64,000 bases of DNA from Patescibacteria group bacterium (GTDB taxonomy: Bacteria > Patescibacteriota > UBA1384 > UBA12157 > JAENIV01): positions 15,307 through 79,306 of the forward strand of contig JBEKTP010000005.1 of NCBI GenBank assembly GCA_049515915.1. Direction: 5' to 3'. The position numbers and the translations under genes were made by a program. The notes under the pieces were generated by a model that saw only the letters and a list, made by a program, of their open reading frames with translations, was not told the DNA's origin and ran no database searches. Position 1 is the stretch's first letter; each line of letters begins with the position of its first letter. Shown in pieces: positions 38,967 to 64,000 of this stretch.

Positions 38967-39356
38967 CTAATCCCAGGGGACCCCCATCACCCGAACCGCT
39001 GGTGCAAAAACAAGTATTATCACTGCGACGATAGCCCATGGTACAATACTTGTTCCGCTGTGTACCAGCCATCCGGCACCGAGAATGGCAATGCTGGAGA
39101 CGCAACCGCCAACTAAGGCGATGAGTGGCTTCGGCCGGTCCATGTTCTTTAGCCAGTCATTCCAGAAGCACGTGAGGATGCAAAAGCAGTACATGGCGAC
39201 GATGGACACGATAGCGAAAATCACAAGCGCGATCAGTACTCGCCAGACTGTCGCAACAGGCATCCATACGCTGATCTGCCATGCGACAAACAAAGGAAAA
39301 AGCAAGTTCACCGCGAGCATCTCCGGCAAAGTCTGGTCTTCCAAATACTGATCCAT
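38967..39356 (-). CDS. Hypothetical 4-TM membrane protein in a GC-richer islet (start at ATG with AGGAGG 8 nt upstream)
   Basis: Four hydrophobic helices, a strong SD and its own terminator. It is GC-richer than rpoB and obg on either side. No family was recognised. Confidence 0.45.
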   Translation of the reverse strand: MDQYLEDQTLPEMLAVNLLFPLFVAWQISVWMPVATVWRVLIALVIFAIVSIVAMYCFCILTCFWNDWLKNMDRPKPLIALVGGCVSSIAILGAGWLVHSGTSIVPWAIVAVIILVFAPAVRVMGVPWD

Positions 39357-39432
39357 CTCGTGCACCTCCTAGTGCATGTGATCTGAAAACATTTTAGATC
39401 GTCGGAGATGAAAAGTCAAGAAAATTCTCAAC

Positions 39433-40422
39433 TTATTTGGCGAGTTCTTTGAGAAGTTCTTTGATGCCTGCCCCGGAGACGGCCGAGATAATCTGCACCG
39501 GCTTAGCAAGTTTTTTCGATAATTTACGCGCGATTTTTTGAGCGTCTTTTTGCGGTATCGTATCAGCTTTATTTAATACGATAATTTCTTTTTTCACCGA
39601 TAGATTTTCGCTCCAAGCTTTGAGTTCTTCGCGAATGACACGGTAATCTTTTTCGATATTGATGCTATTTATATCGATAAGATGAATCAGAATCTTCGTT
39701 CGTTCAATGTGTTTTAAAAACTTCACGCCCAAACCTTTGCCTTGGGAAGCCCCTTCGATCAGGCCGGGGATATCAGCCACCACAAACTCTTTGTCATGAT
39801 AGCGCGCCACGCCCAAGTTCGGTTCCAAAGTGGTGAAAGGATAGTCAGCGATTTTGGGCCGCGCGTTTGAAATAACCGAAAGTAAAGTTGATTTTCCAGC
39901 GTTGGGCAAACCGATCAAGCCGACATCGGCAATAAGTTTAAGTTCCAAATACATTTCCTTTTCTTCGCCAGCAAGACCGCGCTTAGCAATGTAAGGCGTT
40001 TGATGAACGGCGGTGGCAAAATGCGTATTACCCCAACCCCCGCGGCCTCCCTTGGCGACCAATAATCTATCCCCCTCCTTTATGAAATCGTAAATAATTC
40101 CATCATTTTGAGATTTAAGATTTAAATTTTGAATTTTTACTATTGTTCCCGGTGGCACTGGTAATTCTAAATCCTCGGCGTTTTTGCCGGTTTGTTTTTT
40201 GGGACGGCCAGTTTCGCCATTTTCCGCCTGCCACTGCTTTTTCCGAGCATAATCAGTCAGAGTGTGCGTATTTCCTGAACAAATTAAATAAATATCGCCG
40301 CCTTTACCACCATCGCCGCCGTCCGGTCCGCCTTTGGGCACATATTTTTCATGTCGAAAAGAGATGGCGCCATCACCACCTTTACCCGCCACAATATGAA
40401 TTTTCGCTTCATCGGTAATCAT
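39433..40422 (-). CDS. obgE: GTPase Obg
   Basis: Gly-rich Obg fold N-terminus (GKGGDGAISFRHEKYVPKGGPDGGDGGKGGDIY) and a GTPase domain (GLPNAGKST, NKAD). Confidence 0.9.
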   Translation of the reverse strand: MITDEAKIHIVAGKGGDGAISFRHEKYVPKGGPDGGDGGKGGDIYLICSGNTHTLTDYARKKQWQAENGETGRPKKQTGKNAEDLELPVPPGTIVKIQNLNLKSQNDGIIYDFIKEGDRLLVAKGGRGGWGNTHFATAVHQTPYIAKRGLAGEEKEMYLELKLIADVGLIGLPNAGKSTLLSVISNARPKIADYPFTTLEPNLGVARYHDKEFVVADIPGLIEGASQGKGLGVKFLKHIERTKILIHLIDINSINIEKDYRVIREELKAWSENLSVKKEIIVLNKADTIPQKDAQKIARKLSKKLAKPVQIISAVSGAGIKELLKELAK

Positions 40423-41575: not shown

Positions 41576-43462
41576 CTAGTTTCCGATTTTTCTCGCCCTT
41601 ACCTCCTTTTTATAGCACTCTAAAATATCACCAACTAATATTTTAGTCTCGGTAATAACTTTTAGCCCACACTCAAAACCTTCTAAAACCTCATGAACAT
41701 CGTTTTTATTTTGCTGAAGGTTCTCAACTCTACCTTCACCAATAGTATCTTTATCACGGGTGATTTTGACTTCGGTCTTGTTTTCGATTTGGCCGGTTGT
41801 CACTTTGCCGCCAATAATTTTTTCGTTTCGGTGAACTTTAAAAACAGCTAAAACTTCCAAGCGGCCAATTTCGGTTTCGATTATTTCCGGTTCCAAGAGC
41901 CCCGACAAAGCCGCCGCCAGATCGTCGATAAGTTGGTAAATAATATCATAAATTGAAATTTTAATATTTTCGCGGCGAGCCAAATTCATCACGTCAGCAT
42001 CGACTTTGACCCGAAAACCAATCACTAAAGCGTTTGAAGCTAAAGCCATATTGATATCTGATTCTGAGACATCGCCTACGCCTTCATGGATAATATTGAT
42101 TTTAACTTCCTCGGTCGAAATGTTTTTTAAGGATGTCGTAATGGCTTTAAGCGAGCCGTTGACATCGGCTTTAAGAACAATATTTAATTCCTTGATTTTG
42201 CCTTCTTTAATATCGCTGGATAATTCGGTAATCGAAAGCACTTTTCGTTTGATTGTCTTGGCTTTGGTCATTTCGCGAGCATTTTTTTCATCGGCGACCA
42301 CCTCAAAGCGGTCGCCAAAATTAGGCAAATCCTGCAGTCCAGCGATTTGGACTGGCGTTGACGGACCAGCTGTTAAAATTTTTTTACTTAAATAATTTTC
42401 CATAATCCGAATTTTGCCATAGGTTCGACCAATAACGACCGGATCACCCAGTTTTAAAGTTCCTTCTTGGACTAAAACCGTGGCCAGCGGCCCCAAACCA
42501 GCTTGCATATGAGACTCAATCACCACGCCGGAGGCCGGCAAGTTCGGATCGGCTTTAAGCTCGGCTAAATCAGCTACTAATAGAATCATTTCTAAAAGGC
42601 TGTCGATATTTTGCCCAGTTTTAGCGGAAACTTCCACTATCGGTGTCTTGCCACCCCATTCCTCAGGCGAGAGTCCAATATCAGCTAATTGCCTTTTGGT
42701 TTTATCAATATCGGCGTCCGGCAAATCCACTTTATTGATCGCGATCACTATGGGTACGTTAGCCGCTTTAGCATGGTTAGCCGCTTCAACCGTTTGCGGT
42801 TTGACACCATCATTGGCGGCAACAACTAAAACGACTACGTCGGTGATATTAGCGCCATGAGCGCGCATCGCCGAAAATGCTTCATGGCCAGGAGTATCTA
42901 AAAAAGTAATCGCCCTTTCTTCATTTTTAATCTTAGATTTTTGATTTTTTATTTTTATCTGGTACGCCCCAATATGTTGAGTGATGCCGCCGGATTCAGT
43001 CGAGACAACATCGGTTTGACGAATGGCGTCGAGTAATTTAGTTTTACCATGATCAACATGACCCATGACGGTGACCACCGGCGCCCGCAGAATTAGATTT
43101 TTCTTTTTATTAATAGTTTTCGCTTTAAGAGCTTTAATATTTGCACTTTCGGTTTTAAGTTTGACTTCGAACCCCAATTCATCGCCAATGATCAACATTG
43201 TATCAAAATCAATGGACTCATTTATCGTGGCCATCACCCCATTTTTAACTAAACTACCAATCACATCCGTCACCGGAAAACCTAAAGCGGCCGCAAACTC
43301 GCGCACGGTCAAAACCGAAGATACCTCAACAGACGGCTTCGCCGCTGATTGCTCATCTTTGATCGCTGCTTGCTCCTTTTTCTGCGATATGCCAGAAGCG
43401 ATATATTTTAGCTCGGCTTTGGCCTCTTTTTTACTCAATTTTCTCTGACGTCTTTTTGCCAT
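41576..43462 (-). CDS. infB: Translation initiation factor IF-2
   Basis: G-domain [24 protein letters not shown] and NKVD motifs plus C-terminal IF-2 domains. Confidence 0.9.
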   Translation of the reverse strand: MAKRRQRKLSKKEAKAELKYIASGISQKKEQAAIKDEQSAAKPSVEVSSVLTVREFAAALGFPVTDVIGSLVKNGVMATINESIDFDTMLIIGDELGFEVKLKTESANIKALKAKTINKKKNLILRAPVVTVMGHVDHGKTKLLDAIRQTDVVSTESGGITQHIGAYQIKIKNQKSKIKNEERAITFLDTPGHEAFSAMRAHGANITDVVVLVVAANDGVKPQTVEAANHAKAANVPIVIAINKVDLPDADIDKTKRQLADIGLSPEEWGGKTPIVEVSAKTGQNIDSLLEMILLVADLAELKADPNLPASGVVIESHMQAGLGPLATVLVQEGTLKLGDPVVIGRTYGKIRIMENYLSKKILTAGPSTPVQIAGLQDLPNFGDRFEVVADEKNAREMTKAKTIKRKVLSITELSSDIKEGKIKELNIVLKADVNGSLKAITTSLKNISTEEVKINIIHEGVGDVSESDINMALASNALVIGFRVKVDADVMNLARRENIKISIYDIIYQLIDDLAAALSGLLEPEIIETEIGRLEVLAVFKVHRNEKIIGGKVTTGQIENKTEVKITRDKDTIGEGRVENLQQNKNDVHEVLEGFECGLKVITETKILVGDILECYKKEVRARKIGN

Positions 43463-43610
43463 GGTAAATTGATTTTATCACCTTCAGGAGTAGATAGCAA
43501 GCATATGAGAAACCCAGCAAACCTTAGACGGTCCACGGGGCTTTTGTTCTTCCCCTCGGTCATTTTAAGAATGTATCGTCAAACGTTCACTCACGATATA
43601 ATAATGTTAA

Positions 43611-43904: not shown

Positions 43905-43956
43905 TGTTCTTTCGCGGTAAGGCTTGCAAAAAGTAAACGATTTTAGGAATATGGGT

Positions 43957-43965
43957 GGGGGGGGG
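43957..43965. repeat. G9 homopolymeric tract at the 5' end of the GC-rich islet ORF
   Basis: gtgggggggggag seen directly. It lies within codons 2-4 of the longer GTG-initiated ORF (43955), or 35 nt upstream of the ATG at 44000. Confidence 0.7.
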
Positions 43966-43999
43966 AGCACTTCTCACAATTTATGCAGGAAGGACCACT

Positions 44000-44401
44000 A
44001 TGGAAGTAATTCATCAGATCGTAACTCAGATTGTGATTATGGCGCGCGAGAATGATGGCGGGGAAAGCAGTTTCATCGCCAAGATTCTCGCAAGGAGTCT
44101 CCTGTGCTGCAACATCAAGGTGGTTGCGGCCGGTGAGCCCATCCCCGATCTCAAAGGCGAGGACGACATCCTGGTTCTCTCGACCGAACGGCTCCAAACG
44201 GTCAACCAGGCCGCCGAGATGGTTACCGCCACCGACGGCGAGATCCTGATACTGGAAGAGAACAACGCTTTTCCCGTTCCTGGCGAAGTTCGAACGGTCA
44301 TTACTAACATTCCCAAACTGCACTTCGGGAATGTTACCAGGTTGACAGGAACAGACTTGGCTGAAACCGTCCTCGAACAGATCGCCAAGATCAGACAATA
44401 A
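44000..44401 (+). CDS. Hypothetical 133-aa protein in a GC-rich islet (alternative GTG start at 43955)
   Basis: SD GGAAGGA lies 5 nt upstream of the ATG. A GC hairpin follows the stop. No family was recognised. The antisense ORF 43943-44440 is judged an artefact of high GC. Confidence 0.4.
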   Translation: MEVIHQIVTQIVIMARENDGGESSFIAKILARSLLCCNIKVVAAGEPIPDLKGEDDILVLSTERLQTVNQAAEMVTATDGEILILEENNAFPVPGEVRTVITNIPKLHFGNVTRLTGTDLAETVLEQIAKIRQ

Positions 44402-44422
44402 AATGAACCCGCAGTACCAAAA

Positions 44423-44460
44423 GGCGGGGTGCCCACGCACCCCGCCTAACTCATCTTTAA
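44423..44460 (+). terminator. GC hairpin GGCGGGGUGC-CCAC-GCACCCCGCC with a weak U-tract
   Basis: A 10-bp perfect inverted repeat immediately after the stop of the islet ORF. Confidence 0.35.
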
Positions 44461-44999: not shown

Positions 45000-47900
45000 T
45001 CAATTGTCTCCACCTTCTCCACCCCAATAGTTTGGCTCACTTTTCTTTTTAAATAAATTAGGCAGGTTTTGGTCGATAGTTTTATTAGGATTGCCTTTGG
45101 GCGATTCGTCTTTTTTGGTATAATCGTTGACTTTGATATCTTTTCGGTTTTTAAAAATTTGCGGTTGGCGCCACGAGTCCGCGTGAACTTTCGCCCAATC
45201 GGGAATTTTCTTCTCTTTCTCCTCTGATTTGCTTTCGGCGTTTTGGACCACGGGCGATGGCTTCTTTGACCCTTTTTCTTCGGCCGGTTTTTCTTTAATT
45301 TGCTCTTCAACTTCTTCCTCGACCCTTGCTTCCTCACTTATCTTAATAGTTGGAACTTCGTCATCTTCATCACTTTTTACATCATCAAGATCACCCCCAG
45401 TATTCGGCTCGCTCGGCAAATCAAGTTTATCAGTCATATCCTTTTTGATTACGGTAACAGAAGTGACTTTATCGCCAGAATTTAATTTGATCAGTGTGAC
45501 GCCTTGCGTGTCACGCTGCAATTCTTTAATCGAGGAAAGGGACATTCTAATAACTTGGCCTTTGGATGAAGCCAAAATAACATCGTAGTCTTCGCCGTAG
45601 ACCAGCCGCATGCCGACAATCGGCCCGGTCCGTTCGGTCACATTAGCCGCTCGAATACCCATCCCACCGCGAATCTGAGTTTTAAATTGGGGCAGTGGCG
45701 TACGTTTACCAAAGCCTTTTTCTAAAACAATCAAAGCATCAGCATCTTTCTCGCGTTCAGGGCTGACAACGTCAGTTGAAACAACATAATCATTTGCGCG
45801 TAGGGCAATACCACGCACACCAGCCGCGGTGCGGCCCATTGGCCGGATATCGGTTTCCTCATAAAGAATCGATTGTCCGCGGGCTGAGACTTGGAATATT
45901 TTTGAATTGCCTTTTGTAAATTTAACCCAGCGTAAGCGGTCATCACCTTTGAGCTTCATTGCCAAAATACCGGTTTTTCGAACTTTACTGTACATCGAAA
46001 GAGTCGTTTTCTTAACTGACCCTTTAGTGGTAGCCATCATGATAAATTTGAATTTTTCTATGTCCTTGGTCGACAAACAAATCATCGACGTCACTTTTTC
46101 TTCGGGCGAAATTTGTAAAATATTGACAATCGCTTGGCCTTTGGCAAGGCGAGAAGCGGCGGGAATTTCATAGACTTTGGTGTGGAAAACGCGGCCTCGA
46201 TCGGTGAAAAAGTAAATATCATCGTGAGTATTAGCGATAATCAAATGCTCAATCATATCTTCTTCGCGCGTTTCCATTCCCATCACCCCTTTGCCGCCGC
46301 GGACTTGACTTTTATAAGCTGCCGCCGGCATTCTTTTGATGTAATTACCACGCGTTAAAATAATAATGACTTGTTCCGATGGGATCAAATCCTCGGCCGA
46401 GAATTTGCCGATTTCTTGTGCGTAGATTTTAGTACGGCGAGGCGAAGGGAATTTATTTTTTAAATCTGTTAATTCTTTTTTGATAATTTCTAAAATCTTT
46501 TGTCCGGATGCTAAAATAGCTTCGAGCGAAGTAATAAGTTTAATTTTTTCTTGATATTCCGTTTCAACTTTTTCGCGTTCAAGAGCAGCCAGTGCCGAAA
46601 GACGCATTTCTAAAATAGCATTGGCCTGGACTTCGTCAAGTTTAAATTTAGTAATAAGCTTTTTTTGAGCCTCATTACGGTTAGTTGATTTACGAATTGT
46701 CGCGACCACTTCGTCGATATTTTTTAGCGCAATGCGCAAGCCTTCCAAAATATGAGCGCGTTCCTTCGCGCGGTCAAGTTCAAATTGAGTGCGGCGACGG
46801 ACAACGACTTGGCGATGTTTGATATATTCTTCCAAAATATTTTTCAAAGTCAAAACGCGCGGTTGTATTCCATCTACTAAAGCGAGCATGTTGACATAAA
46901 ATATCGTCTGCATCGTCGTTAGTTCATAAAGACGGTTTAAGATTTTTTTCGGGTAGGCGTTAGCGCGCAGCTCAATGACAATTCTCACCCCGTCTTTTCG
47001 GTCAGACTCATCGCGCAGATCTGAAATGCCATCGAGTTTTTTTTCTTTAACTAAATCGGCGATCTTTAAAATCAATTCGGCTTTATTAACTTGATAAGGA
47101 ATTTCAGTAACAATAATTCGAAAACCGCGTTTGGTTTCTTCGATATTGGCGACTGCCCGCATTACAATCGCGCCTTTACCGGCCCCGTAGGCATTTTTGA
47201 TTTGCGCGAGTCCATAAATTTCAGCGCCAGTTGGAAAGTCCGGCCCTTTGACAAAAGTCATCAAATCATCAATTGTGCAGTCGAGATTATCGATGAGATA
47301 AATAGCAGCGTCGCAAACTTCACCTAAGTTGTGAGGCGGGATGTTGGTAGCCATACCGACAGCAATACCCATTGAGCCGTTGAGTAGAAGATTCGGCAAT
47401 TTAGCTGGTAAAACTTTTGGTTCTTCGCGGGTGCTATCGTAGTTCGGCACAAAATCAACAGTATCTTTTTCAATATCAGAGAGCAATTCTTCGGCGGGTG
47501 CGGTCAGTCGACATTCGGTATTATGGTTAATAAAACCATTACCTACATACGAATGACACTCACTCTCAACTTTCAAAGAATAAACTTGTGCTCGACCGCC
47601 ATCACTGATCTTTGTTATCGGATCAAAAAGATAATGATTTGACAAGAGTGTCTTAAAAATATTTTTTAAATATGGCTGAACGTTTACTTTTACAGCCGAA
47701 ACAACAGCTTGATAATTCTCTTGCATTTGGAGATAGCGATCAAAATTATGTTTGACAACAAATTGTCGAACATCATGATAACTTAAACTCTCATCAAGAT
47801 TAGACCGTGTATAATCACTTAGTAAAGGCACAAAATCCGTCTGCGATTGTACTTTTTTCAAACCCTGTATAACTACTTTTAATTTATCTTTTTTTATTTT

Positions 47901-49373
47901 GCCTAAGAAATTAATTTCATGATTAAAAATCCGATAATTATCCAAACCACGAACATATAGCTTATAAATGCTTCGATAATGATCCAAGCGCAGAGTACTC
48001 GCGACCCCAAATCTCAAAAGGAGAATTTGAATTTGACGGAGGATTTCATTATTCTTGGAGATACAACTTAACTCTATCATTTTACCACTGGAACTAATTG
48101 TTCCATCCCCTTCAAAATACGCGCTCAAAAAAATACTGACCACTGATTTTGGAGATTGAAAAATTGACCAAGGAACAAGCCGATCTGCGGACTTACACGG
48201 CTTAAGACCAATGCTTTGTAAAAAACGCAAAACGTAGCGGGAATGAATTTCTAAAGTGTAGTATGATTTCTTACCAAATCCAAATGATGATGGTCTTTTT
48301 TTGAATTCATGAAGACGGCAATCCGGAAAAACCCTAAACCATCTCTTTTTAAAATTATTTATCCATTGCTTGTCAGTATTGGAAAATTCCAGCTCATTCT
48401 GACACAATGTTCCTTCAGATAGAAGCGACCCTAAAATATAAGCCAAATCTTGATTAAGCATTTTTGGTAAAACTTTTTTTTGAGCACGAGAATTTTCATC
48501 TTTCGGCCAATAAGGTTTTAGTTGAACCTTTTTCTTGGGCCATAATAAATCCGGAGTCCGGTTAATTACCGCTACATCGCCAAATTTAACTTGACTAAGC
48601 AGCTTCCACTGCAACCCCGGTGCACCATTACTTCCGTCCCCATGCCAAACTAAAATCGGATGATTATAAGAACCCTGAAGAGTATAACCTCTTAGTGTTG
48701 AGATTTTAATTGTTGGATGAGTACCGCTATCAAACCATTTAATAGCCGAGTTGATTTTTTGATTTTTTGAAAGTATTTTGCATTTAATGTCTTCCCGGCT
48801 ATCACTTGAAATGTCTTTGATTGGCATTAAACCCTTATCGGTAATAATTAAAGTATCGCCAGTAACGCAGTAACGCATAGCGGCCGCTTGGTCACCGTCA
48901 ACTGAACCGAAATTTCCCTGACCATCAACAAGGCGAACACCCATCGAAAAATCCTGGGCCAAACGAACGAGCGTATCATAAACGGCAATGTCGCCGTGCG
49001 GATGGTATTTACCCAAAACGTCACCCACCACAGTAGCTGATTTGCGATATTTGGCTTGGTGAGTCAATCCAAGTTCGTTCATCGAAAATAAAACGCGACG
49101 ATGAACTGGCTTTAAACCATCACGAACGTCAGGCAAAGCACGCGAAATAATCACCGACATAGCGTAGTCAAGATAAGATTCGCGCATTTCATTTTCTAAA
49201 ACGCGCCCGCGGACTAGCCCATAATTAGTTTTTTCGTCTTTGCCTTCCTTTTCTTCGGTAAAATCACCTAAAATTTCGGCTTTAGCCACTTCTTCAGGAT
49301 TTAATTCAGCCAATTCTTCAGCTTTAATTTCAGCGATGTTTTTGTCAGGATTATTTTGTTTTTTATCAGCCAT
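45000..49373 (-). CDS. gyrA: DNA gyrase subunit A, interrupted in-frame by an intein; long acidic/Lys-rich C-terminal tail
   Basis: N-terminal GyrA motifs through GDQAAAMRY (active-site Tyr168). An intein follows, then extein resumes at [13 protein letters not shown]. The extein is ~1007 aa. Confidence 0.9.
47520..48869 (-). mobile_element. GyrA intein (450 aa) with LAGLIDADG homing-endonuclease domain, inserted after the catalytic Tyr
   Basis: It starts at Cys (CVTGDTLII) immediately after AAMRY and ends ...[22 protein letters not shown], followed by T. Two LAGLIDADG-like blocks ([22 protein letters not shown]). Same insertion site and terminal blocks as the Mxe GyrA intein. Confidence 0.85.
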
Positions 49374-49384
49374 TATACCCTTAA

Positions 49385-49558
49385 TTAATCATTTTTCAGT
49401 TTTTTAAAATCGCCCTTTTCCTTTTTAATATTGGAGGCATTCGCCCGTGGCTTGCCGCGCTGCTTACCCATACCCACTTCCGAATCAAACCAATCCTTGT
49501 GCGGTTGATTATTTTCTAAATAACGGCTACTTTTTTTACCTTTTCGTCGTTTTGGCAT
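49385..49558 (-). CDS. Hypothetical small basic protein (57 aa from Met8, AGAGGT SD)
   Basis: [29 protein letters not shown]... lies between gyrB and gyrA. There is no family match, only RBS support. Confidence 0.3.
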
Positions 49559-49688
49559 CTTTACCTCTTTCGTCGACAAGCTAATTGTTGCTCAAAGTAA
49601 CTTGTACAAGCCAAGTATGTAAGCTGCCAATTGACTCGCTGAGTTAATCGACAGCCGATACTTTATGCAATAATAGCGAGCCATATTA

Positions 49689-52088
49689 TCAAATATCTAA
49701 ATTCTTAACATTTTTTGCGTGGGTAAGAATAAAGCGTTTGCGCGGCGCTACTTCGTCGCCCATGAGCATCGAAAAAACTTGATCAGCTCTTTCCGTATCG
49801 TCAACGGAAACTTTGAGTAAAACGCGATTTTCCGGATTCATCGTCGTTTCCCAAAGTTGTGTCGGCTGCATTTCTCCCAAACCTTTGTACCGTTGAATAT
49901 AAACATCTTTGCCCAATTTTTTAATAATCTTATCTTTTTGATCATCGTTATAGGCGTATTCCTTGACCTTACCCTTGGAAATGGAATAGAGCGGCGGTTG
50001 GGCAATGTATAAATTATTATTTTTGATTAAGTCGGGAAAATGACGATAAAAGAAAGTCAATAAGAGTGTGCGGATATGCGCGCCGTCAACATCGGCATCA
50101 GTCATAATAATGACACGGCCGTAGCGGAGCTTGGCCATGTTAATACCCTCGCCAATACCCACCCCCATGGCGACAATTAGCGACTTAATTTCTTCAGATG
50201 AAAGCATCCGGTCAAGTCTAGCCCGCTCAACATTTAAAATTTTTCCACGTAAAGGCAGAATTGCCTGAAACATCCTGTCGCGTCCTTGCTTTGCACTATT
50301 ATGAACAAAGACGCCGCTCGTGAGAGCAAAGTTGTGCGTCTTCGGCACCTCACAATCATATACATCAATTTTTTTTGAAAGAAATTTTATTAACTTTATT
50401 TTGTGGTTATAGCTTTTTACCGTCTCTGAAAATTTTGTACGATCACTATTTAAAAACCGCTCGATCAAAGGCATCAAACTATTATTATTTTCTAAATCTT
50501 TTGCCATCCGATAATGGCCATCACGAAGCATAAACCGGTGATCGGGAGTGCAAATAATTTTTTCATTATTGTCTAATGTAATTTCAATAACTTGAGTATT
50601 TCTTTTTGTTATTCTTGGTGAAAGAATTTTTTCGATACCTATATTTCCATCTGATTTAATTGTATAACAATAATTTGTTTTGCCTCTTTGGTATTCTTTA
50701 ATAAGTTCTTTAAAACTCAAGTTTCTACCGTCAGCTAAAACGAGTTTAGTATCCCCAGAAAAACATCCGCCAGCAGAGTTGCCCTCAACAATATAGAGCT
50801 CGGCGTTTTTCGGATCGCGGGTTGAACAATCGGCAAGCTTGCCGGGCAAAGTCATCCCTTCCAGCGCGCCTTTACGAATAACCGTCTCACGCGCTGCTTT
50901 GGCGGCCAACCGGGCCCGCAAAGATAAAGAACATTTTTCAACAATTCTTTTGGCGTCCTGCGGATGCTCGTCAAGCCAATAACTTAATCCCTCTAAAGTG
51001 GCTTGTTCAACAATGGATTTAACTTCCGGATTGCCGAGCTTGGCTTTTGTCTGACCTTCGAATTGCGGATTCGGGAGTTTAACCGAAATTACGGCCGTCA
51101 ATCCCTCGCGTGTATCATCACCGGAAAGAACCGCTTCGACGCCTTTAACCATCTCATTTTTTTTAGCGTAATCATTAATCGCCCGCGTCAGCGCCGAACG
51201 AAAGCCCGTCAAATGCGAGCCGCCTTCGGTCGTATAAATATTATTGGCAAATGAAAAAACGTGTTCATTATAATCATCAGAATAAGCTAGTGCTACTTCA
51301 ACGCGGATGTCGTCTGACTGTTTTTCTAAATAGGCCGGCGGATCGTTAAAAACTTCTTTGTCTTTATTAATATGGCGAACGTATGATGAAATGCCGCCTT
51401 CAAAGTAGAAAGTGTAACATTTTTCGGGATCAACTGGCTTAGTAAAATCTTCATCTTTTCTTCGATCGCAAATAATAATTCGAATGCCGCGCGTTAAATA
51501 AGCTTGCTGACGCAGATGATTAATGATTGTTTCTAAAGAAAAATTTCGGCTCGAAAAAACCTCTGGGTCTGGCTCAAAAGTAATGGCCGTGCCTTTTTCT
51601 TTAGTTTCACCCACCGGTTTAACCGCCGCTTTAGGTTTACCGCGGACATACTCTTGAACGTAAATTTTGCCATCGCGAAAAACCTCGGCTTTGGTATAGA
51701 TTGAAAGGGCGTTAACCACCGAAACACCGACCCCATGAAGACCGCCGGAGACTTTATATCCGCCGCCTTCGCCGAACTTAGCGCCGGCATGCAGGGTCGT
51801 CAGAACCGTTTCTAAAGCTGATTTTTTAGTCTGAGTGTGAATATCCACCGGAATGCCGCGGCCATTGTCTTTGACCCGAACACGATCTTTCGGCAAAAGC
51901 TCTAAAATAATAGTGTCACAGTAGCCGGCCATTGCTTCATCGATAGCGTTATCCACCACTTCCCAAACAAGGTGATGAAGACCTTCGGCACCCGTTCCGC
52001 CAATATACATGCCTGGACGGCGGCGAACCGGCTCAAGGCCTTCCAAAACCGTAATATTTTGCGCGGTATAACCCGCTTCTTTAGGCAC
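49689..52088 (-). CDS. gyrB: DNA gyrase subunit B, interrupted by a mini-intein
   Basis: GHKL ATPase and TOPRIM motifs. ...LYIVEGNSAGG, then intein, then SAKQGRDRMFQAILPLRGK. The extein is 643 aa. Confidence 0.9.
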   Translation of the reverse strand: MPKEAGYTAQNITVLEGLEPVRRRPGMYIGGTGAEGLHHLVWEVVDNAIDEAMAGYCDTIILELLPKDRVRVKDNGRGIPVDIHTQTKKSALETVLTTLHAGAKFGEGGGYKVSGGLHGVGVSVVNALSIYTKAEVFRDGKIYVQEYVRGKPKAAVKPVGETKEKGTAITFEPDPEVFSSRNFSLETIINHLRQQAYLTRGIRIIICDRRKDEDFTKPVDPEKCYTFYFEGGISSYVRHINKDKEVFNDPPAYLEKQSDDIRVEVALAYSDDYNEHVFSFANNIYTTEGGSHLTGFRSALTRAINDYAKKNEMVKGVEAVLSGDDTREGLTAVISVKLPNPQFEGQTKAKLGNPEVKSIVEQATLEGLSYWLDEHPQDAKRIVEKCSLSLRARLAAKAARETVIRKGALEGMTLPGKLADCSTRDPKNAELYIVEGNSAGGCFSGDTKLVLADGRNLSFKELIKEYQRGKTNYCYTIKSDGNIGIEKILSPRITKRNTQVIEITLDNNEKIICTPDHRFMLRDGHYRMAKDLENNNSLMPLIERFLNSDRTKFSETVKSYNHKIKLIKFLSKKIDVYDCEVPKTHNFALTSGVFVHNSAKQGRDRMFQAILPLRGKILNVERARLDRMLSSEEIKSLIVAMGVGIGEGINMAKLRYGRVIIMTDADVDGAHIRTLLLTFFYRHFPDLIKNNNLYIAQPPLYSISKGKVKEYAYNDDQKDKIIKKLGKDVYIQRYKGLGEMQPTQLWETTMNPENRVLLKVSVDDTERADQVFSMLMGDEVAPRKRFILTHAKNVKNLDI
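50298..50765 (-). mobile_element. GyrB mini-intein (156 aa, no endonuclease domain) at the EGxSAGG|SAKQGRD site
   Basis: CFSGDTKLVLADGRNLSFKELIKEYQRGKTNYCYTIKSDGNIGIEKI...ICTPDHRFMLRDG...SGVFVHN, followed by S. It closely resembles the splicing domain of the Synechocystis GyrB intein (from memory). Confidence 0.85.
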
Positions 52089-55423: not shown

Positions 55424-56782
55424 CTAGTATGCGCCCCGGCCGCGGATAATTACCCATAAAGTTCTTAAAAATATCTGTAAATCGAGCCACAAAGACCAGT
55501 TTTCAATATAGTAGGCGTCGAGTCGCACCCATTCGTCAAACGATAATTCCGATCGTCCCGAAACCTGCCAAAGACCGGTAATGCCCGGCTTAACCCCTAA
55601 GCGTTTTCTTTGCCAGGTAGTGTAACGTTCAACTTCTGAAGGCAGGGGTGGTCGCGGGCCGATTAAACTCATATCGCCTTTTAAAACATTGAAAAACTGC
55701 GGTAGTTCATCTAAACTCGTTTTTCTTAAAATTCGCCCCAGCGGCGTCGCGCGCGGATCGTGCGAAAGTTTAAACATATTACCGTATTTTTGAATATATT
55801 TTTCATGTTCTTTCTCGGCCATGTTTTTCATACTACGAAACTTATAAAAAATAAATTTTTTCTCCAGGCCGACCCGTTCCTGCCGAAAAAGAATCGGTCC
55901 TCTGGAGGTGAGTTTGATTAGACCGGCGATAATCAGCATCAAGGGCGAAAAAATGATGATTAAAATTAATGAGCCGACTAAATCAACAATTCTTTTAATA
56001 ATTCTCCCCCAACCATCAAGCGATGTCCGTTTAAACTCCATAATCGGTACGCCGGCTAAAGTTTGAACATCAATATGGGAAGAGCGGACTAAAAATAAAT
56101 CCGGTGTGGTCTTAAGGCTAATTTGATGAAAGCGACAAAATTCCAAAATCTCTGAAATTTTCGATTGATTAAGATGAGTATTGGTAACAATAATTTCATC
56201 GGCCGGATTACGCTCAAGAATGGCCTCTAATTTTTCAACACCAGCCTCGTCAATGACTTTAACCAGTTTATATCCCAAGCCGCGGTTTCTTTTAATTTCA
56301 TCCACAATAAAACGTGTTGAGGAGTTGCCGCCAACCACAATGACTCGGTGGACACCAATATCATAGCGGTAGAGAAAACGTTCGATGAAATTAATTAAAA
56401 ATCGCCCGAGAGTAACTAAAATAATCGCCACCAGCCAAACATAGATAATAATCAATCGAGAAAAGAAAAATGTCCGGCTCAAGAAAATCCAAGCCAGGAC
56501 TATGCCGACCGCCGAGGAAACTGCCACGATTATTTTGCCAAGTTCTTCAAGTCGTCGATCTTTTTCACGCACTGAATAAAGTCCGGCCACAATAAAAGTC
56601 ACCAGCCAAATCGGAATAGTAGTCAATATGAAATGAAGATAACCTTGCAGCGGCTCAATATAAATAGTCGGTACAAATGTTAGAAAAGTTCGTAGCCAGT
56701 AGGCAATAACAAATGAAAAAACGACCATCAATAGGTCAACCGGAATTTTTAAGAAAGTAAATATTAGCTCGGAACGCTTCAA
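55424..56782 (-). CDS. Polyprenyl-phosphate sugar phosphotransferase (WbaP/EpsL-type bacterial sugar transferase)
   Basis: Five N-terminal TMs and the C-terminal PF02397-type motif PRPPLPSEVERYTTWQRKRLGVKPGITGLWQVSGR. Confidence 0.8.
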   Translation of the reverse strand: MKRSELIFTFLKIPVDLLMVVFSFVIAYWLRTFLTFVPTIYIEPLQGYLHFILTTIPIWLVTFIVAGLYSVREKDRRLEELGKIIVAVSSAVGIVLAWIFLSRTFFFSRLIIIYVWLVAIILVTLGRFLINFIERFLYRYDIGVHRVIVVGGNSSTRFIVDEIKRNRGLGYKLVKVIDEAGVEKLEAILERNPADEIIVTNTHLNQSKISEILEFCRFHQISLKTTPDLFLVRSSHIDVQTLAGVPIMEFKRTSLDGWGRIIKRIVDLVGSLILIIIFSPLMLIIAGLIKLTSRGPILFRQERVGLEKKFIFYKFRSMKNMAEKEHEKYIQKYGNMFKLSHDPRATPLGRILRKTSLDELPQFFNVLKGDMSLIGPRPPLPSEVERYTTWQRKRLGVKPGITGLWQVSGRSELSFDEWVRLDAYYIENWSLWLDLQIFLRTLWVIIRGRGAY

Positions 56783-57610: not shown

Positions 57611-58027
57611 GTGCCGATTATCACAGGGAAAGGTGTCCCGGCGGGTCTCGAAAAAGGAAAGAAGGTATACGACCAGCTCAAGCATGACATCGCGGTGGCG
57701 GCCGCAACAACACGAGGCCTCGAAGATATCGGATTCGACGAGGTGGAAGTCTTCCTGATATCTGACCTCGGCACCGTCGGCAATGCTCTTGTCTTCGAGG
57801 TTACCGGGATCTTCGAGCGCCCCGACCGGACGCCAGAGGTCTACCGCCGACTCGAGGAGAACATCTGCAGGGTCCTCCGCTCCTTCGCGAGCAAGTGGAT
57901 CCCGGCGTGCACTACCGTCGAAGCGGAGGTGATCCACAAGATGAAGCCGAAAGACTTGACGCTCTACGTACGACCAGACATCCTGGGCCTGCGCATACGG
58001 AGATTCAAGAGAATCCGATTCAAGTGA
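57611..58027 (+). CDS. Hypothetical high-GC protein (~138 aa, GTG start, N-terminal MPIITGKG; possible tautomerase-like Pro1 protein, very tentative)
   Basis: AAGGAG lies 7 nt upstream of the GTG. High-GC codon usage. Overlapping antisense ORFs are ignored. Confidence 0.4.
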   Translation: MPIITGKGVPAGLEKGKKVYDQLKHDIAVAAATTRGLEDIGFDEVEVFLISDLGTVGNALVFEVTGIFERPDRTPEVYRRLEENICRVLRSFASKWIPACTTVEAEVIHKMKPKDLTLYVRPDILGLRIRRFKRIRFK

Positions 58028-58102
58028 TGCGCATTGCGCGCATCACAAGCAGTACAAAGGCGGCGCCTGGGACACCAGGCGCCGCTTCTTCATATCAATA
58101 CC

Positions 58103-58163
58103 AAAAAGAGCTTTCGTTCTCAAAAAACAGGAAGGGCGGAGCGGACACCAGTCCGCCCCGCCC
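58103..58163 (-). terminator. 62-bp repeated element, copy 1: AGAGC-UUUC-GCUCU mini-hairpin plus 13-bp GC hairpin with a minus-strand U-run (purB-like gene terminator)
   Basis: aaaaagagctttcgttctcaaaaaacaggaagggcggagcggacaccagtccgccccgccc. On the minus strand the GC hairpin is followed by CUGUUUUUUGAG. Confidence 0.5.
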
Positions 58164-58169
58164 GCTCAC

Positions 58170-59588
58170 TTAGGCCACCAGTTGTCTCCTGGCGAGCCTG
58201 GCCACCTGCTGGGCCTTCTCGAAGGCCAAGCCAGTGTATTCTTCAGGTCGGTGAAGCAGCTCCATGATTGAGGGCGGAATGCGGCCAATCGCATCCAGGA
58301 GCGCTTCGTTTGGCATGTCCTCAAGGATGTCGATGAGGAGTCGCCCCGTCCTCTTGGACTCCGGCACAGCCTGCTCGGCCACAATCTTGTAGCCGTCGCC
58401 TTCGAAGCCGGCGATCTGCAGAGCCAGTTGCGTCGGCTCGGCCAGAAGGAAGGGGGCAACCAAGCGGAAGTTCCGTTCACAAGCATCGGCATTGACGACC
58501 ACGCGCGCCAGGAAGGGCACCCCGTCATCGTTGCGTCGCCTAAGCGTGTTAAGTTGCTGCATAACGTTGACGACGATGACCGGGAAGAAGCGCGCGACGG
58601 GACTGCCGACCAGGTCACGCTGGAGATCGCTGATGAGAGTATCCATGACGTTCCCGAACATATTCTTGGTCAGGATCCATATTCCTACCATGTTCTCGAA
58701 GTTGATCGGGTTGGTCTTCTGTCCCAACGTCGAGGAGCCAACCTCTCCGAGACCTTTGACCTCCGCGAACTCGGCGATTTCCGTGCGCATCAGGTTGCGC
58801 GCGTCCTGCCCAAGCTGCGCCATCGAGGCAGAGAAAAGACAATTCACAAAGAGGTGCAACGCCAGAGGTTCGGGCGGCAGGATCTGGGTGCTAATGCGGG
58901 CAGGCTGAAGGCCAAGTTTGGCAAGAACCCGATATTCGAACGAACACCCACCACACTTGGCAAGGATGCCCAAACCCTTCTGGGCATTGAAGGCGCCAAC
59001 CGCACCGGAGATCTTGCCGACAATCTGCCCGCAGGCCCGATCCATCTCCTCGAGCGTATACAGATAACGGGAAAGGATGGTTGCGAGCCAGAAGCCGACG
59101 GTGATCGGCAAGGCGGCTTGGAGATGTGTCCGTCCAAGCTGGAGCTGGTCAGCAAACCGTTCCACTAAGTCAGATAGCAACAGCCCGACCTCGCTGGCGG
59201 CTGGGCGGACCGCTTCTCGGTGAGCCCGAACAAAGGACATCGCCCGAGCCGTGTCGAGAGGGTCGTAGCTCGTCAAGCCGGTGTGGATCCACCGGCCGAG
59301 ACGGCGATCGACCCGTTCCATTGCCAGTTGGACCCAGGCGCGAATATCGTGCTTGGTCACCTTCCGTTCGCGCTGATCTACCTCGGTCGTGGTTATCCCG
59401 AGAAGCTGTTCACGAACATCAGGCGTCAAGAGCGCGATATCATCAGCAGGAATGAAGCCGATCTCGCCAAGCACTTCCAGATTGGCGATCTCGACTCGGG
59501 CTACGCCCTCGTACGAATGGTCGTAGCCGAAGATAGGCACAAGTTCTTTTGGCTGATACCGAGAATGCCCCGGCAGCGTCTCGTTCAT
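58170..59588 (-). CDS. purB: Adenylosuccinate lyase-like (fumarate-lyase superfamily; divergent signature loop)
   Basis: ASL-like N-terminus (..KHDIRAWVQ..) and the lyase-1 signature region GSSTLGQKTNPINFENM in place of canonical GSSAMPHKRNPI..EN. GC is high. Confidence 0.65.
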   Translation of the reverse strand: MNETLPGHSRYQPKELVPIFGYDHSYEGVARVEIANLEVLGEIGFIPADDIALLTPDVREQLLGITTTEVDQRERKVTKHDIRAWVQLAMERVDRRLGRWIHTGLTSYDPLDTARAMSFVRAHREAVRPAASEVGLLLSDLVERFADQLQLGRTHLQAALPITVGFWLATILSRYLYTLEEMDRACGQIVGKISGAVGAFNAQKGLGILAKCGGCSFEYRVLAKLGLQPARISTQILPPEPLALHLFVNCLFSASMAQLGQDARNLMRTEIAEFAEVKGLGEVGSSTLGQKTNPINFENMVGIWILTKNMFGNVMDTLISDLQRDLVGSPVARFFPVIVVNVMQQLNTLRRRNDDGVPFLARVVVNADACERNFRLVAPFLLAEPTQLALQIAGFEGDGYKIVAEQAVPESKRTGRLLIDILEDMPNEALLDAIGRIPPSIMELLHRPEEYTGLAFEKAQQVARLARRQLVA

Positions 59589-59664
59589 GTCGCGCTATGT
59601 TCTCCTTCCGCAAGTGAGTTGCTGCTCTGATTTATTTATAACAAATATTTGCTTTTTGGCAAAC

Positions 59665-59726
59665 CAAAAAAGAGCTTTCGCTCTCAAAAAATGGGAAGGG
59701 CGGAGCGGACACCAGTCCGCCCCGCC
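59665..59726 (-). terminator. 62-bp repeated element, copy 2 (purL terminator)
   Basis: aaaaaagagctttcgctctcaaaaaatgggaagggcggagcggacaccagtccgccccgccc. The 3' 34 nt are identical to copy 1. Confidence 0.5.
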
Positions 59727-59749
59727 CGGGATAGTCGGATAAGACCGCG

Positions 59750-62700
59750 CTACTTATTCGCGCGGCACCAGTCGAGGCCGTTCAGGCCGATTTGAATCCA
59801 AGGTGACTCCGGAAGGGTTTCCCGCCACTCGGGAGGCATCCAGGCCCAGAGCCTCTTCAAGTAACCACGATCAAACATGTGTGGCATGACGTAGGTGTTC
59901 CGACCGGGTTCGTCGCAAACACCTGCGACATAGTGGCCGCTCGGACTGTACGGCAACGCGCGAGTGCGGCGACCATGGGCGTCAACGTAGACGACTGGAA
60001 TCAGCCGCTTCTCATTGGCCTGCTCGAGCACTTCGGGATAGGCGGTGCAATCGAAGAAACCCTCGCCATTGGCTACGTAGGTGCCGAGAACCGATCCCTC
60101 CATCCCCCGAAAGAGAATGGAAGTGCTCGGCTCCACCAACACGCGCACCCATTGGTGATTGAACGAACCCAACTTAATCTGGGTGAACTTAGGCTGCTGG
60201 TCCTCGGGCAGTTGCGGAAATGGCGCCCAGCCGCAGCGGAGACCGAGTTGGGCTCCGTTACAGACCCCGAAGCTAAAGGTATCATCCCGAGCGAAGAACT
60301 GCTCGAAGATTGCCTTAAGCTTGGGGTTCATCTTGATCTTGAGGGCCCACCCGACCGCTGCTCCAAGGACATCGCGGAAGGTGAATCCGCCGGGGAAGAT
60401 CACGCCCCGAAACATCTCGAGGTTGTCGAGTCGACCCAATAGGAAGTCATTGAGATGAACTTCCCACGGGTCGAAGCCGACGTACCGCCAGGCCGCCATC
60501 ATCTCCACATGGCCGTTTGTTCCCTGTTCGCGGATCACCGCGAGCTTTGGCTTGTCCGGATTTCGGAGAATTGACCGCGGCCGCGTGGGTATAAATGTCA
60601 AGCGGTAGAGCGGCTGTTCGCGCGTGGCTGTGTTGCGCCATTCCTTTCCGGCCTCCGCAGGGTTGACGCGAATCTTGCGGAATTCATAGCCAGTGCGCTC
60701 CCACTTTCGCCGTGCTTCAGCCGTTGTAGCATTGAGAATCTCCTCGCCGTTATGGTTGAGACTGATCGTCTGTTCAGTCGTTGTCCGACCAAGCACCTGA
60801 TAAGGCACACCATAGTCATCGAGAACCTCACGTACCTTATCTAGGTTTTCGTCAGAGACTTCGACAACGAATCCCAACTCCTCGGCGAGCCACTCGTTGA
60901 AGGCGGAGTGCGGTGTGTTGGTGGCAAGCTTGACCCCGCAACCGGTGGCAAAGCACATTTCCGCCACTGTTGCGGCCAAACCACCGGAACTGATGTCGTG
61001 CCCGGCCGTGATGAGCTTGCTGAACAGTAAGTCCTGAGCCGCTGCGAAAGTCTTCAGTAGTAGATCGGGCCGGTCGAGGTTGGGACAATCCGCGCCCAAC
61101 TGACCAAGAGTCTGTCCGAAGGACGAGCCGCCCAGACGGCGTTCACCGTTAGCGATGTCGATCCTAACAAGCATACTCCGGCCGGGGTACTTAATCTCCG
61201 GTGTAACGTAGACTGAGATGTCCTCCACCGTGACGGCCGTAGAGAAAACGACGGTCTCGATCGACTTGACCAGAAGCTTCTTGACCCAAGTGGCCATCGA
61301 ACTCGAGTCTTTACCACCAATGATGGCAGACCAGAGCTTGATGAGCGTGTCGCGAACAGCTCTGACCGCGGCATCGAGTCGAGCAATCTCTCCATCAGGT
61401 GGCTTGAGTGTCGCCGGCCACATCCAGTTACAAAGACACTTGATCTTCTTGATGTTATCGATGCCCATGCCCATGAGGTTAGTGTACATCTCCCCAATGG
61501 ACATGCGGGCACCCGCTTGCGGATCAAGAGCAGTTAAGTACGGCGCAACCCCGAGAGTGGCAGCCTGGCCCGACTTGGAGGCTGAACTGAAGGCAACAAG
61601 TGAACAGTCGGCGACAGGAGTCGCGAACGGGCCGCAATACTGGTTCTGCACGACGAGCCCGCCAATACTTCCATCAACGCCGCGGGTAACGAACTCCTTG
61701 CTTCCCACTTCGCTCCGGCGGAAGGTTTGGAAAGCAGCTCGTTCGAAGGTGAGATCATCAGGAATCTCGAGCGGAATTCTGATGTCTTCGGGGGTTGTGT
61801 CGTGAATGTCCGGGCTATCGATCTTAGCCAAGAGCTCCGCCATAACGAAATCGACGATTGGCTTGGCATGCTTGGCCTTGACCTCTGCCTTACTGGCTTC
61901 GGAAAAGACTTGAAGACGACCGTCGCCGGCAATCTCGCCGAGAACTTCGATCGGACAGTTCTCGCGGCGGCAAACGTAACGGAGCCACTTAAGGTCACGC
62001 TTCCAGATGAGGATGCCCTGCCGTTCCTGATACTCACAGACCCAGACTTTGGCATCGGACATGGTCGGATCGCCGCGGTTGACCTGGCCGAGATAGATAC
62101 GGCCGCCAGCCCGGCCAATCAGTTCCGAAAGGATATTGGCGACGCCGCCAGCACCCTGGTCGTGAATGGCGACGATAGGGTTCTTCCGTCCGCGGGCCAT
62201 GCAGGCCAGCAGCACCTGATAAAACCGCCGTTCCATCTCGGGATCACCACGCTGAACGGCGTTCTCATCGAAGGTTGCGGTGTTCGAGCCCGAAGTCGAG
62301 CTGGAGCCCGAGCCGCCACAGAACCCGATCGGATAGGCCGGTCCCCCGATCTGAACGACTAGCATCCCCTTGCGAGGCTTCCCCTTCCGAAGATGCTGAT
62401 GCTGAATCGCGCCGCCACCAAAGCCGAAACCAACCGGCTTAAGCGACTCGACACGTTCCATGATAATCTTGCCTCGCTTGTTACGCCGAGGCCGCCAGAT
62501 GGCACCCGTAAACCAGAAACCAGCAGTGCAGGGCTTACCAAATGCATCAGCGTAGTCGTGCCAGCCTTGAAGACTCTTGGCCGCGACTTCGACCGGGGTA
62601 GCCTTGTCAGTCGGGTAGTCATAGCGCCGCCCGCGGATGAATTCGCCGGGAATACGGTAGCCGCTCGGGAAGCGGATGCTCCCCAAAATCCGACCCTGTA

Positions 62701-63661: not shown

Positions 63662-63875
63662 GGAACAAAACCTCGCTGCAAGGATTACAAGATACTAAGA
63701 CTCTCTGGTCATGCCGACGGCAGAGAACCAGTTAGTCTTCGACTTAATCTTACAAACCCAAATGACATAAAAAAAGTCTTAAGTCAAGACGTGCTCTTTT
63801 TTATTTGATAACTCAAAAAAGAGCTTTCGCTCTTTGAAATGCAACGGCCGAGACCCACGTCGGATCTCGGCCAGT

Positions 63876-64000
63876 CAGTTGTCCTCCTCGTCGGAAGCAG
63901 TATTAGTTTTTTTCGTGGCTCGCTCGCGTTTATCCAGTCCCTCGACACAGTGAGGACACATCTTCATCACTAGTGTGTCCGGAGCGGCTGCATAAAACTC
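63876..64000 (-). CDS. Partial CDS (C-terminus only) ending ...LVMKMCPHCVEGLDKRERATKKTNTASDEEDN*
   Basis: Open frame to the window edge with stop TGA at 63876-63878. The CPHC motif hints at a zinc ribbon. Identity unknown. Confidence 0.25.

Follow-up and report, generated by a model that had tools for sequence, protein, structure and literature searches.

We analyzed a 64,000-nt window of DNA from an uncultured Patescibacteria bacterium with a small genome, a member of the candidate phyla radiation (CPR), in which the adjacent genes for the two DNA gyrase subunits, gyrB and gyrA, are each interrupted by an intein. The window covers positions 15,307 to 79,306 (forward strand) of contig JBEKTP010000005.1 in assembly GCA_049515915.1, and position numbers below are those of this whole 64-kb stretch. 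The two inserts are, with high probability, unrelated canonical class 1 inteins at different stages of the homing cycle, with an apparently intact endonuclease in the GyrA intein and a lost endonuclease domain in the GyrB intein. The new observation is that gyrB is intein-positive in the window and intein-free in a second strain of the same species and that this difference lies inside a tract of high divergence.

Inteins interrupt both gyrase subunits

An earlier sequence-only reading of this locus had claimed that both gyrase subunits are intein-interrupted. Our analyses bear this out, since the open reading frames (ORFs), which lie exactly at the positions given there, the profile matches, and splicing blocks A, B, F, and G are all in place for the following features.

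49689..52088, minus strand: gyrB precursor gene, 799 amino acids, 643 once spliced (ORF and profile matches)
50298..50765, minus strand: GyrB mini-intein, 156 amino acids, GyrB residues 442 to 597, in the Toprim motif
45000..49373, minus strand: gyrA precursor gene, 1457 amino acids, 1007 once spliced (ORF and profile matches)
47520..48869, minus strand: GyrA intein, 450 amino acids, GyrA residues 169 to 618, with Cys1, block B SYNH, block G INHN, and a +1 Thr

Searches of Pfam and NCBIfam identified GyrB by TIGR01059 together with HATPase_c, DNA_gyraseB, Toprim, and DNA_gyraseB_C and identified GyrA by NF004043, TIGR01063, DNA_topoisoIV, and six DNA_gyraseA_C blades. Inside GyrB, the same searches matched Intein_splicing (E = 3.7e-18), intein_Nterm, and intein_Cterm; inside GyrA, they matched Intein_splicing, intein_Nterm, and LAGLIDADG_3. 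The junctions, marked here with slashes, read YIVEGNSAGG/CFSGDT…SGVFVHN/SAKQGRD in GyrB and AAMRY/CVTGDT…GNGFINHN/TECRL in GyrA, the latter insert starting directly after the catalytic tyrosine. The sequence-only reading had placed a 156-residue GyrB intein at EGxSAGG/SAKQGRD, which is exactly where it sits, and had described the GyrA intein as a full-length element that follows AAMRY, ends in HN/T, and carries two LAGLIDADG blocks, a description that agrees with the boundaries and with the invariant acidic residues reported below.

Both inserts have the features of class 1 inteins, namely, Cys1, a +1 Thr (GyrA) or Ser (GyrB), blocks B and G, and a HINT fold. In the GyrB mini-intein, Cys1 is accompanied by TPDH in block B, DVYDCEV…THNFAL in block F, and VFVHN in block G ahead of the +1 Ser, and His155 and Asn156 are invariant. 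A class 3 assignment, considered on account of the block F cysteine (DVYDCEV), was rejected: this cysteine comes after the conserved Asp and does not stand in its place, and the intein has Cys1.

The spliced exteins proved to be contiguous with solved gyrases, a check that the earlier reading had suggested. Both align without gaps over both junctions to solved gyrase chains, with the GyrA alignment running through …DGDNAAAMRYTEVRM… and the alignment of GyrB to E. coli GyrB running through …VEGDSAGGSAKQGRNR…. Relatives supplied the corresponding intein-free alleles, to which the exteins also align gap-free: both sites are empty in the related contig L127, in which the empty gyrA site reads GACGGCGACTCGGCGGCGGCGATGCGTTAT directly followed by ACCGAATGTCGCTTAACGGCCGCGGCCGAA, and the gyrB site is empty in the sister strain L128. 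Relative to L128, the ratio of nonsynonymous to synonymous substitutions (dN/dS) is 0.02 to 0.06 for the GyrA and GyrB exteins.

The 799-residue GyrB precursor recurs as an exact copy on 23 contigs, assembled independently from several samples, which excludes an assembly error, and it is identical to a protein deposited at NCBI from a Patescibacteria metagenome-assembled genome. Samples carrying the species are ERZ27250144, ERZ25039512, SRR13201919, SRR13021855, and SRR7028244. Gene order around the operon agrees with that of relatives (L127, L128, and the CPR contig L130), which have a single gyrB-gyrA locus.

Both inteins interrupt catalytic motifs, one after the DNA-cleaving tyrosine of GyrA and the other within EGDSAGG, the Mg-binding Toprim motif of GyrB. 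Since both motifs are broken, unspliced gyrase should be inactive and splicing should be kept under selection. We propose that the two precursors are translated whole and that each intein would then excise itself by the standard route, in which Cys1 undergoes an N-S acyl shift, the +1 residue (Ser in GyrB, Thr in GyrA) accepts the transfer, the terminal Asn cyclizes, and an O-N shift follows. The products would be the 643-residue GyrB and the 1007-residue GyrA.

The GyrA intein carries a complete LAGLIDADG domain

The central part of the GyrA intein contains the following features.

47634..48518, minus strand: LAGLIDADG homing-endonuclease domain, limits approximate (LAGLIDADG_3, E = 1.2e-14, above the cut-off)
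48408..48446, minus strand: LAGLIDADG motif 1, intein residues 142 to 154, acidic residue E152
48099..48131, minus strand: LAGLIDADG motif 2, intein residues 247 to 257, acidic residue D255

The splicing residues C1, H70, H449, and N450 do not vary across 26 sequences, and the family alignment likewise shows E152 and the E253-G254-D255-G256 stretch to be invariant. Block B has Ser in place of the usual Thr (SYNH), and this Ser is near-invariant, being found in at least 90% of the family. Among PDB chains, the nearest by sequence is that of the Mxe GyrA intein (1am2; E = 5e-17), which aligns over both terminal splicing regions, while the center of the intein resembles the endonuclease portions of PI-PkoII and of VMA inteins. 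An AlphaFold model built with 26 family members was of high confidence (predicted local distance difference test [pLDDT], 91.8; predicted template modeling [TM] score [pTM], 0.91), and its top PDB matches were TliVMA, PI-PfuI, PI-PkoII, and PI-SceI. In this model, the central domain resembles I-DmoI and the ends resemble the Mxe GyrA intein. The insert thus combines both acidic residues, a pseudo-dimeric fold, and a Pfam match, as seen in two-motif LAGLIDADG homing endonucleases.

When the gyrA gene was compared with that of L128, dN/dS was 0.02 to 0.03 in the exteins, 0.12 in the intein, and 0.16 in the endonuclease domain; given this last value, the endonuclease domain is constrained rather than decaying freely. 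The apparently intact endonuclease would cut intein-free gyrA at the conserved site of insertion, and repair of the break would copy the intein into the cut allele, i.e., the intein would home.

The GyrB mini-intein has lost a central endonuclease domain

Alignment of the GyrB mini-intein with full-length relatives of 431 to 434 residues confirmed the earlier claim that its endonuclease domain has been lost and indicated that the lost domain was HNH-like rather than LAGLIDADG. The join that this loss left behind maps to a single site.

50463..50468, minus strand: endonuclease-deletion scar, Leu100/Ile101 (TTG/ATC), join at nt 50465/50466

Relative to the 431-residue intein of the Patescibacteria contig P0035 (L131) and to the P0037 intein, the central 275 codons are gone, in frame, between SLMPL and IERF, and TTG is found at both edges of the deleted segment in the P0035 DNA, a microhomology. 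In the full-length relatives, the segment that the window copy lacks contains the HNH-like motif HKHHxDFNKxNNxPxN…H…H (HKHHVDFNKFNNKPENI…H…H), on account of which an assignment of the lost domain to the LAGLIDADG family was rejected; Pfam HNH_3 matches to full-length GyrB inteins were below threshold (E = 0.009 and 0.12). The central endonuclease domain that marks the Ssp GyrB-type family is therefore missing from the window copy, its 275 codons having been deleted.

The remaining splicing domain is intact in its predicted structure. The AlphaFold model has a complete HINT fold (pLDDT, 89.5), and its only low-confidence part, a loop at residues ~101 to 120, coincides with the deletion scar. 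The top PDB matches of the model were NpuDnaE and the Ssp DnaB mini-intein (TM score, 0.75 to 0.84), with Mtu RecA also matching (TM score, 0.7 to 0.84 overall); the PDB search returned no GyrB intein. Compared with the P0035 intein, the dN/dS of the splicing domain is ~0.17.

We suggest that the GyrB intein arose from an ancestor of ~433 residues with an HNH-like endonuclease when one deletion removed 275 codons in frame. Because the endonuclease domain has been lost, the mini-intein should be unable to home unaided; it would persist by vertical descent and would move or vanish only through ordinary homologous recombination. A review of the homing cycle likewise derives mini-inteins from inteins that have lost their endonuclease (PMC7765530).

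Both inteins belong to large families with patchy distributions

GyrA and GyrB are common intein hosts in bacteria (Novikova et al., PMC4760082) and are among the frequent hosts in archaea too (PMC9348778). We counted inserts in the 119 closest relatives of GyrB and the 120 closest relatives of GyrA. When used as the sole query, the 156-residue intein retrieved 33 short fragments, and the full-length proteins made far better queries. At the GyrB site, ~77 of the 119 relatives carry an insert (~60 full-size and 17 mini or intermediate) and 42 are intein-free. At the GyrA tyrosine site, an insert of ~445 residues is found in ~93 of the 120 relatives, and ~26 are intein-free. The nearest GyrA extein relatives (82 to 83% identity) have no intein, and intein-bearing GyrA proteins are scattered over distant lineages; for the GyrA intein itself, a search of the representatives of 50%-identity clusters gave 2104 relatives at E ≤ 1e-10.

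Other mini-inteins of the GyrB family span 141 to 175 residues and have different deletion endpoints, which implies that they arose independently, many times. Among contigs with matching gene order, L127 has neither intein, the window has both, L128 has only the GyrA intein, and L130 has both subunits interrupted, with a full-size intein in GyrB.

A genome scan with PHTHNFALASGVFVHN, a C-terminal motif of the Synechocystis GyrB intein, matched at least 120 genomes. Among the matches listed, inteins with the PHTHNFALASGVFVHN motif occur in the gyrases of cyanobacteria, Chloroflexi, Omnitrophota, CPR bacteria, and archaea, the archaeal carriers being Methanoperedens, Woesearchaeota, Nanoarchaeia, and Methanomassiliicoccales. 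The same listed matches include a common, uniform GyrB intein of 434 to 435 residues plus many independent deletion derivatives of 143 to 386 residues. Taken together, both elements are members of large, well-known families with these insertion sites, and they are ordinary except for the strain-to-strain difference in gyrB. Our literature search found no paper specific to inteins of CPR bacteria or Patescibacteria.

The gyrB intein is polymorphic between two strains of one species

L128, a 542-kb contig from a strain of the same species, shares 95 to 97% nucleotide identity with the window over the surrounding 24 kb. Its GyrA intein has 448 residues and is 93.8% identical to that of the window, whereas its gyrB is intein-free. 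The mismatches between the two gyrB genes are clustered around the intein site.

50070..51444, minus strand: high-divergence tract at the gyrB intein site relative to L128, ~1.4 kb

Within this tract, nucleotide divergence from L128 is 9 to 12%, against a regional median of 3.3%. Synonymous divergence (dS) reaches 0.71 in the 681 nt upstream of the insertion site and 0.94 in the 228 nt downstream, values 10 to 15 times higher than the 0.05 to 0.07 measured at the ends of gyrB. For the +1 Ser, the intein-bearing gyrB uses AGT, and both empty alleles (L127 and L128) use TCG. That the tract and the intein junction coincide can hardly be accidental, and since the intein difference sits inside the high-dS tract, we attribute it to allelic recombination at gyrB. 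Most simply, homologous recombination would have exchanged the resident segment for the corresponding one of a somewhat diverged lineage, and this exchange would have carried the endonuclease-less intein in or out. To assign a polarity to this event, we compared protein identity segment by segment with 45 relatives and with L127 as the outgroup, but the protein differences were too few.

Patches of 10 to 20% divergence from L128 also occur elsewhere in the 24 kb compared, at ~39300 to 39600, ~42900 to 43200, ~55500 to 56100, and ~57300. These further patches imply that recombination is frequent in the population and that the strains are recombination mosaics. Collinearity with L128 is broken near 43566, where L128 has an extra UbiA-family gene. 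In gyrA, dS at the 5′ junction of the intein is 0.59 and 0.26, compared with 0.06 to 0.15, which hints at recent gene conversion there.

One interpretation of the gyrB polymorphism, to which we give roughly even chances, is that it represents live, endonuclease-independent intein traffic, in which a splicing-only intein is gained or purged by homologous recombination together with ~0.9 kb of flanking extein. If true, it would point to frequent recombination in natural CPR populations. More speculatively, the two inteins might make gyrase maturation conditional, e.g., redox sensitive via extra cysteines, and thereby act as a posttranslational brake on supercoiling in an organism with a small genome.

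Weighing of alternative explanations

Several points weigh against the view that two class 1 inteins at different homing-cycle stages occupy these genes or limit what can be said of their recent history. Splicing and endonuclease activity are both predicted from conserved residues, folds, and purifying selection; the GyrA intein has the unusual Ser in block B, although this substitution is probably tolerated; and the HNH-like assignment of the lost GyrB domain is a suggestion based on a visible motif and subthreshold HNH_3 matches. As for the strain difference, gain of the intein in the window lineage and loss in L128 fit equally, the synonymous sites being saturated relative to L127, and the presence of further divergent patches means that the gyrB tract is not unique. 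One alternative would be that splicing has been lost from one insert or from both and that gyrB-gyrA is a decaying pseudo-operon. The lower guanine-cytosine (GC) content of the inteins (31 to 35%) relative to their exteins (43 to 46%) could be taken in its favor, and with 64 kb of the genome in view, a second gyrase copy is possible. We give this alternative hardly any credence, because the reading frames are intact, no splicing-block residue has been lost, purifying selection on the exteins is very strong, the identical precursor recurs on 23 contigs from several samples, and the gene order matches that at the one gyrB-gyrA locus of relatives.

It is less far-fetched, though still unlikely, that the endonuclease of the GyrA intein is inactive and that the element is vertically inherited baggage, either fixed and tolerated or retained for another role of its DNA-binding domain. 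Both strains of the species have the GyrA intein, so that no empty target exists within the species, and a dN/dS of 0.16 in the endonuclease domain would also fit selection merely for a fold that does not disturb splicing. Against this stand the catalytic acidic residues and their flanking glycines, invariant in 26 to 59 family members, and the domain itself, which is complete, free of frameshifts and deletions, and confidently folded; moreover, the patchy distribution of GyrA inteins is the expected product of ongoing horizontal homing, and the raised dS at the 5′ intein junction suggests recent gene conversion. With respect to gyrB, the divergent tract might instead be a random recombination import unrelated to the intein, the intein difference having arisen separately, e.g., by precise deletion. 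The other divergent patches in the 24 kb, at ~39300, 42900, 55500 to 56000, and 57300, are consistent with this idea, but we judge it distinctly improbable: the tract starts at the junction and brackets the insertion site with ~680 nt upstream and ~230 nt downstream, the +1 Ser codon switches between codon families (AGT versus TCG) exactly at the junction, and, under the homing cycle, an intein should only very rarely be deleted precisely if no recombination template is available (PMC7765530). We therefore favor replacement of a gyrB segment, with its intein state, by homologous recombination.

Other features of the gyrase locus and the window

The spacer between the gyrase genes and the ends of GyrA have features of their own.

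49385..49558, minus strand: very basic ORF of 57 amino acids between gyrB and gyrA, outside both inteins

This spacer ORF has no Pfam match, and ORFs of 56 to 57 amino acids lie at the same position in the gyrB-gyrA spacer of L127, L128, and other contigs. GyrA proteins typically have ~800 to 875 residues, and the intein-free GyrA relatives of this clade have 947 to 1032. In this clade, GyrA has an N-terminal extension of ~50 residues (gyrA end, 49220 to 49373), and past the last beta-propeller blade, it has a C-terminal tail of ~150 residues that is rich in Lys, Glu, and Ser (45000 to 45440). Compared with L128, the tail has a dN/dS of 0.27, a sign of faster evolution than in the core.

The rest of the window holds housekeeping genes such as rpoB, rpoC, fusA, infB, and pheT. 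At 43943 to 44440, three overlapping ORFs of 136 to 165 amino acids lie on both strands without an obvious gene call, and relatives have a gene of 127 to 133 amino acids called at the matching place. Genes for rRNA, tRNA, or group I introns were not found in the window, which consequently has no rRNA-intron endonucleases. From 58001 to 64000, the GC content rises to 0.57 to 0.58, compared with ~0.40 elsewhere in the window, and two genes were recognized in this block.

59750-63661, minus strand: large-type PurL (formylglycinamide ribonucleotide [FGAR] amidotransferase), 1303 amino acids
58170-59588, minus strand: Lyase_1/PurB-like gene, 472 amino acids

As far as window position 60375, where the compared stretch of L128 ends, the high-GC block is 96.8% identical to L128. 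Since the sister strain has a matching stretch, the block is not a chimeric assembly; the small CPR genome probably acquired it horizontally, as a purine-synthesis island.

Implications

The sequence-only reading had described the region as a hotspot of selfish-element activity. This description is overstated: a search of the six-frame translation with both inteins detected no further intein-like sequence in the 64-kb window, and the term is too strong for a place where two of the commonest intein hosts merely adjoin. What the locus does offer is a compact natural series of the homing cycle, made up of the window, L128, and L127 states together with the independent GyrB deletion derivatives, and the strain series documents the recombination-mediated gain or loss of an intein without an endonuclease. 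For annotation, the findings mean that CPR gyrase genes are often 150 to 450 codons too long and should be spliced in silico before phylogenetic or structural work. The GyrB mini-intein, with its 156 residues, is also a natural relative of an engineered form in wide use, the Ssp GyrB mini-intein, and may be of minor practical interest for protein engineering. Knowledge of how inteins work is unchanged by either element.

Comparison with known inteins

The GyrA intein corresponds to the mycobacterial GyrA inteins (Mxe and M. leprae) in its host protein, insertion point, Cys1, +1 Thr, and homologous splicing domain. The shared insertion site, which the sequence-only reading had proposed for the Mxe GyrA intein, is supported by the best PDB match to 1am2 and by the primers used to delete the M. 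leprae gyrA intein, which translate to the junction PAAMRY/TEARLT (PMC6658535). The two differ in that Mxe GyrA is a natural mini-intein of 198 residues without an endonuclease, whereas the window GyrA intein has 450 residues and a complete LAGLIDADG domain. Similarity to the mycobacterial family is modest, and the mycobacterial host is an actinobacterium, whereas the present host belongs to the Patescibacteria. NF038098, the model for intein-containing GyrA, aligns in one stretch (residues 59 to 1306) but scores 1098.4 against a cut-off of 1850, and the GyrA intein is therefore a distant allele outside that curated model. The HINT fold combined with a two-motif LAGLIDADG domain is shared with TliVMA (7qss), PI-PfuI (1dq3), PI-PkoII (2cw7), and PI-SceI (1vde), although these reside in other hosts and at other insertion sites and have only 9 to 19% identity to the GyrA intein.

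Close counterparts of the GyrB mini-intein are the full-length GyrB inteins of the Patescibacteria P0035 and P0037 (431 to 434 residues), which occupy the same site. Their N-terminal 100 intein residues are 81 to 84% identical to those of the window copy, and their exteins are 78 to 81% identical; since intein identity tracks extein identity, the GyrB intein appears to have descended in common within this clade. The Toprim insertion point is also shared with the cyanobacterial GyrB family (Ssp GyrB from Synechocystis PCC 6803). The sequence-only reading had judged the splicing blocks to be strikingly like those of the Synechocystis GyrB intein. We assessed this likeness indirectly, through the Nostoc and Microcystis inteins and one published peptide, Synechocystis not being among the scan matches listed. 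To this extent the claim largely stands: the last six residues and the +1 residue, GVFVHN/S, are identical to those of the published Ssp GyrB S11 C-intein (PMC2794532), and the splicing domain is 58% identical to the GyrB intein of Nostoc calcicola and 55% identical to that of Microcystis aeruginosa (range, 55 to 59%), with up to 64.5% identity to other members of the GyrB intein family. At 156 residues, the mini-intein even equals the total length of the engineered Ssp GyrB S11 form (150 plus 6 residues; PMC2794532). The native cyanobacterial GyrB intein, by contrast, has 435 residues and an HNH-like center, and relative to it the window copy is a natural deletion derivative.

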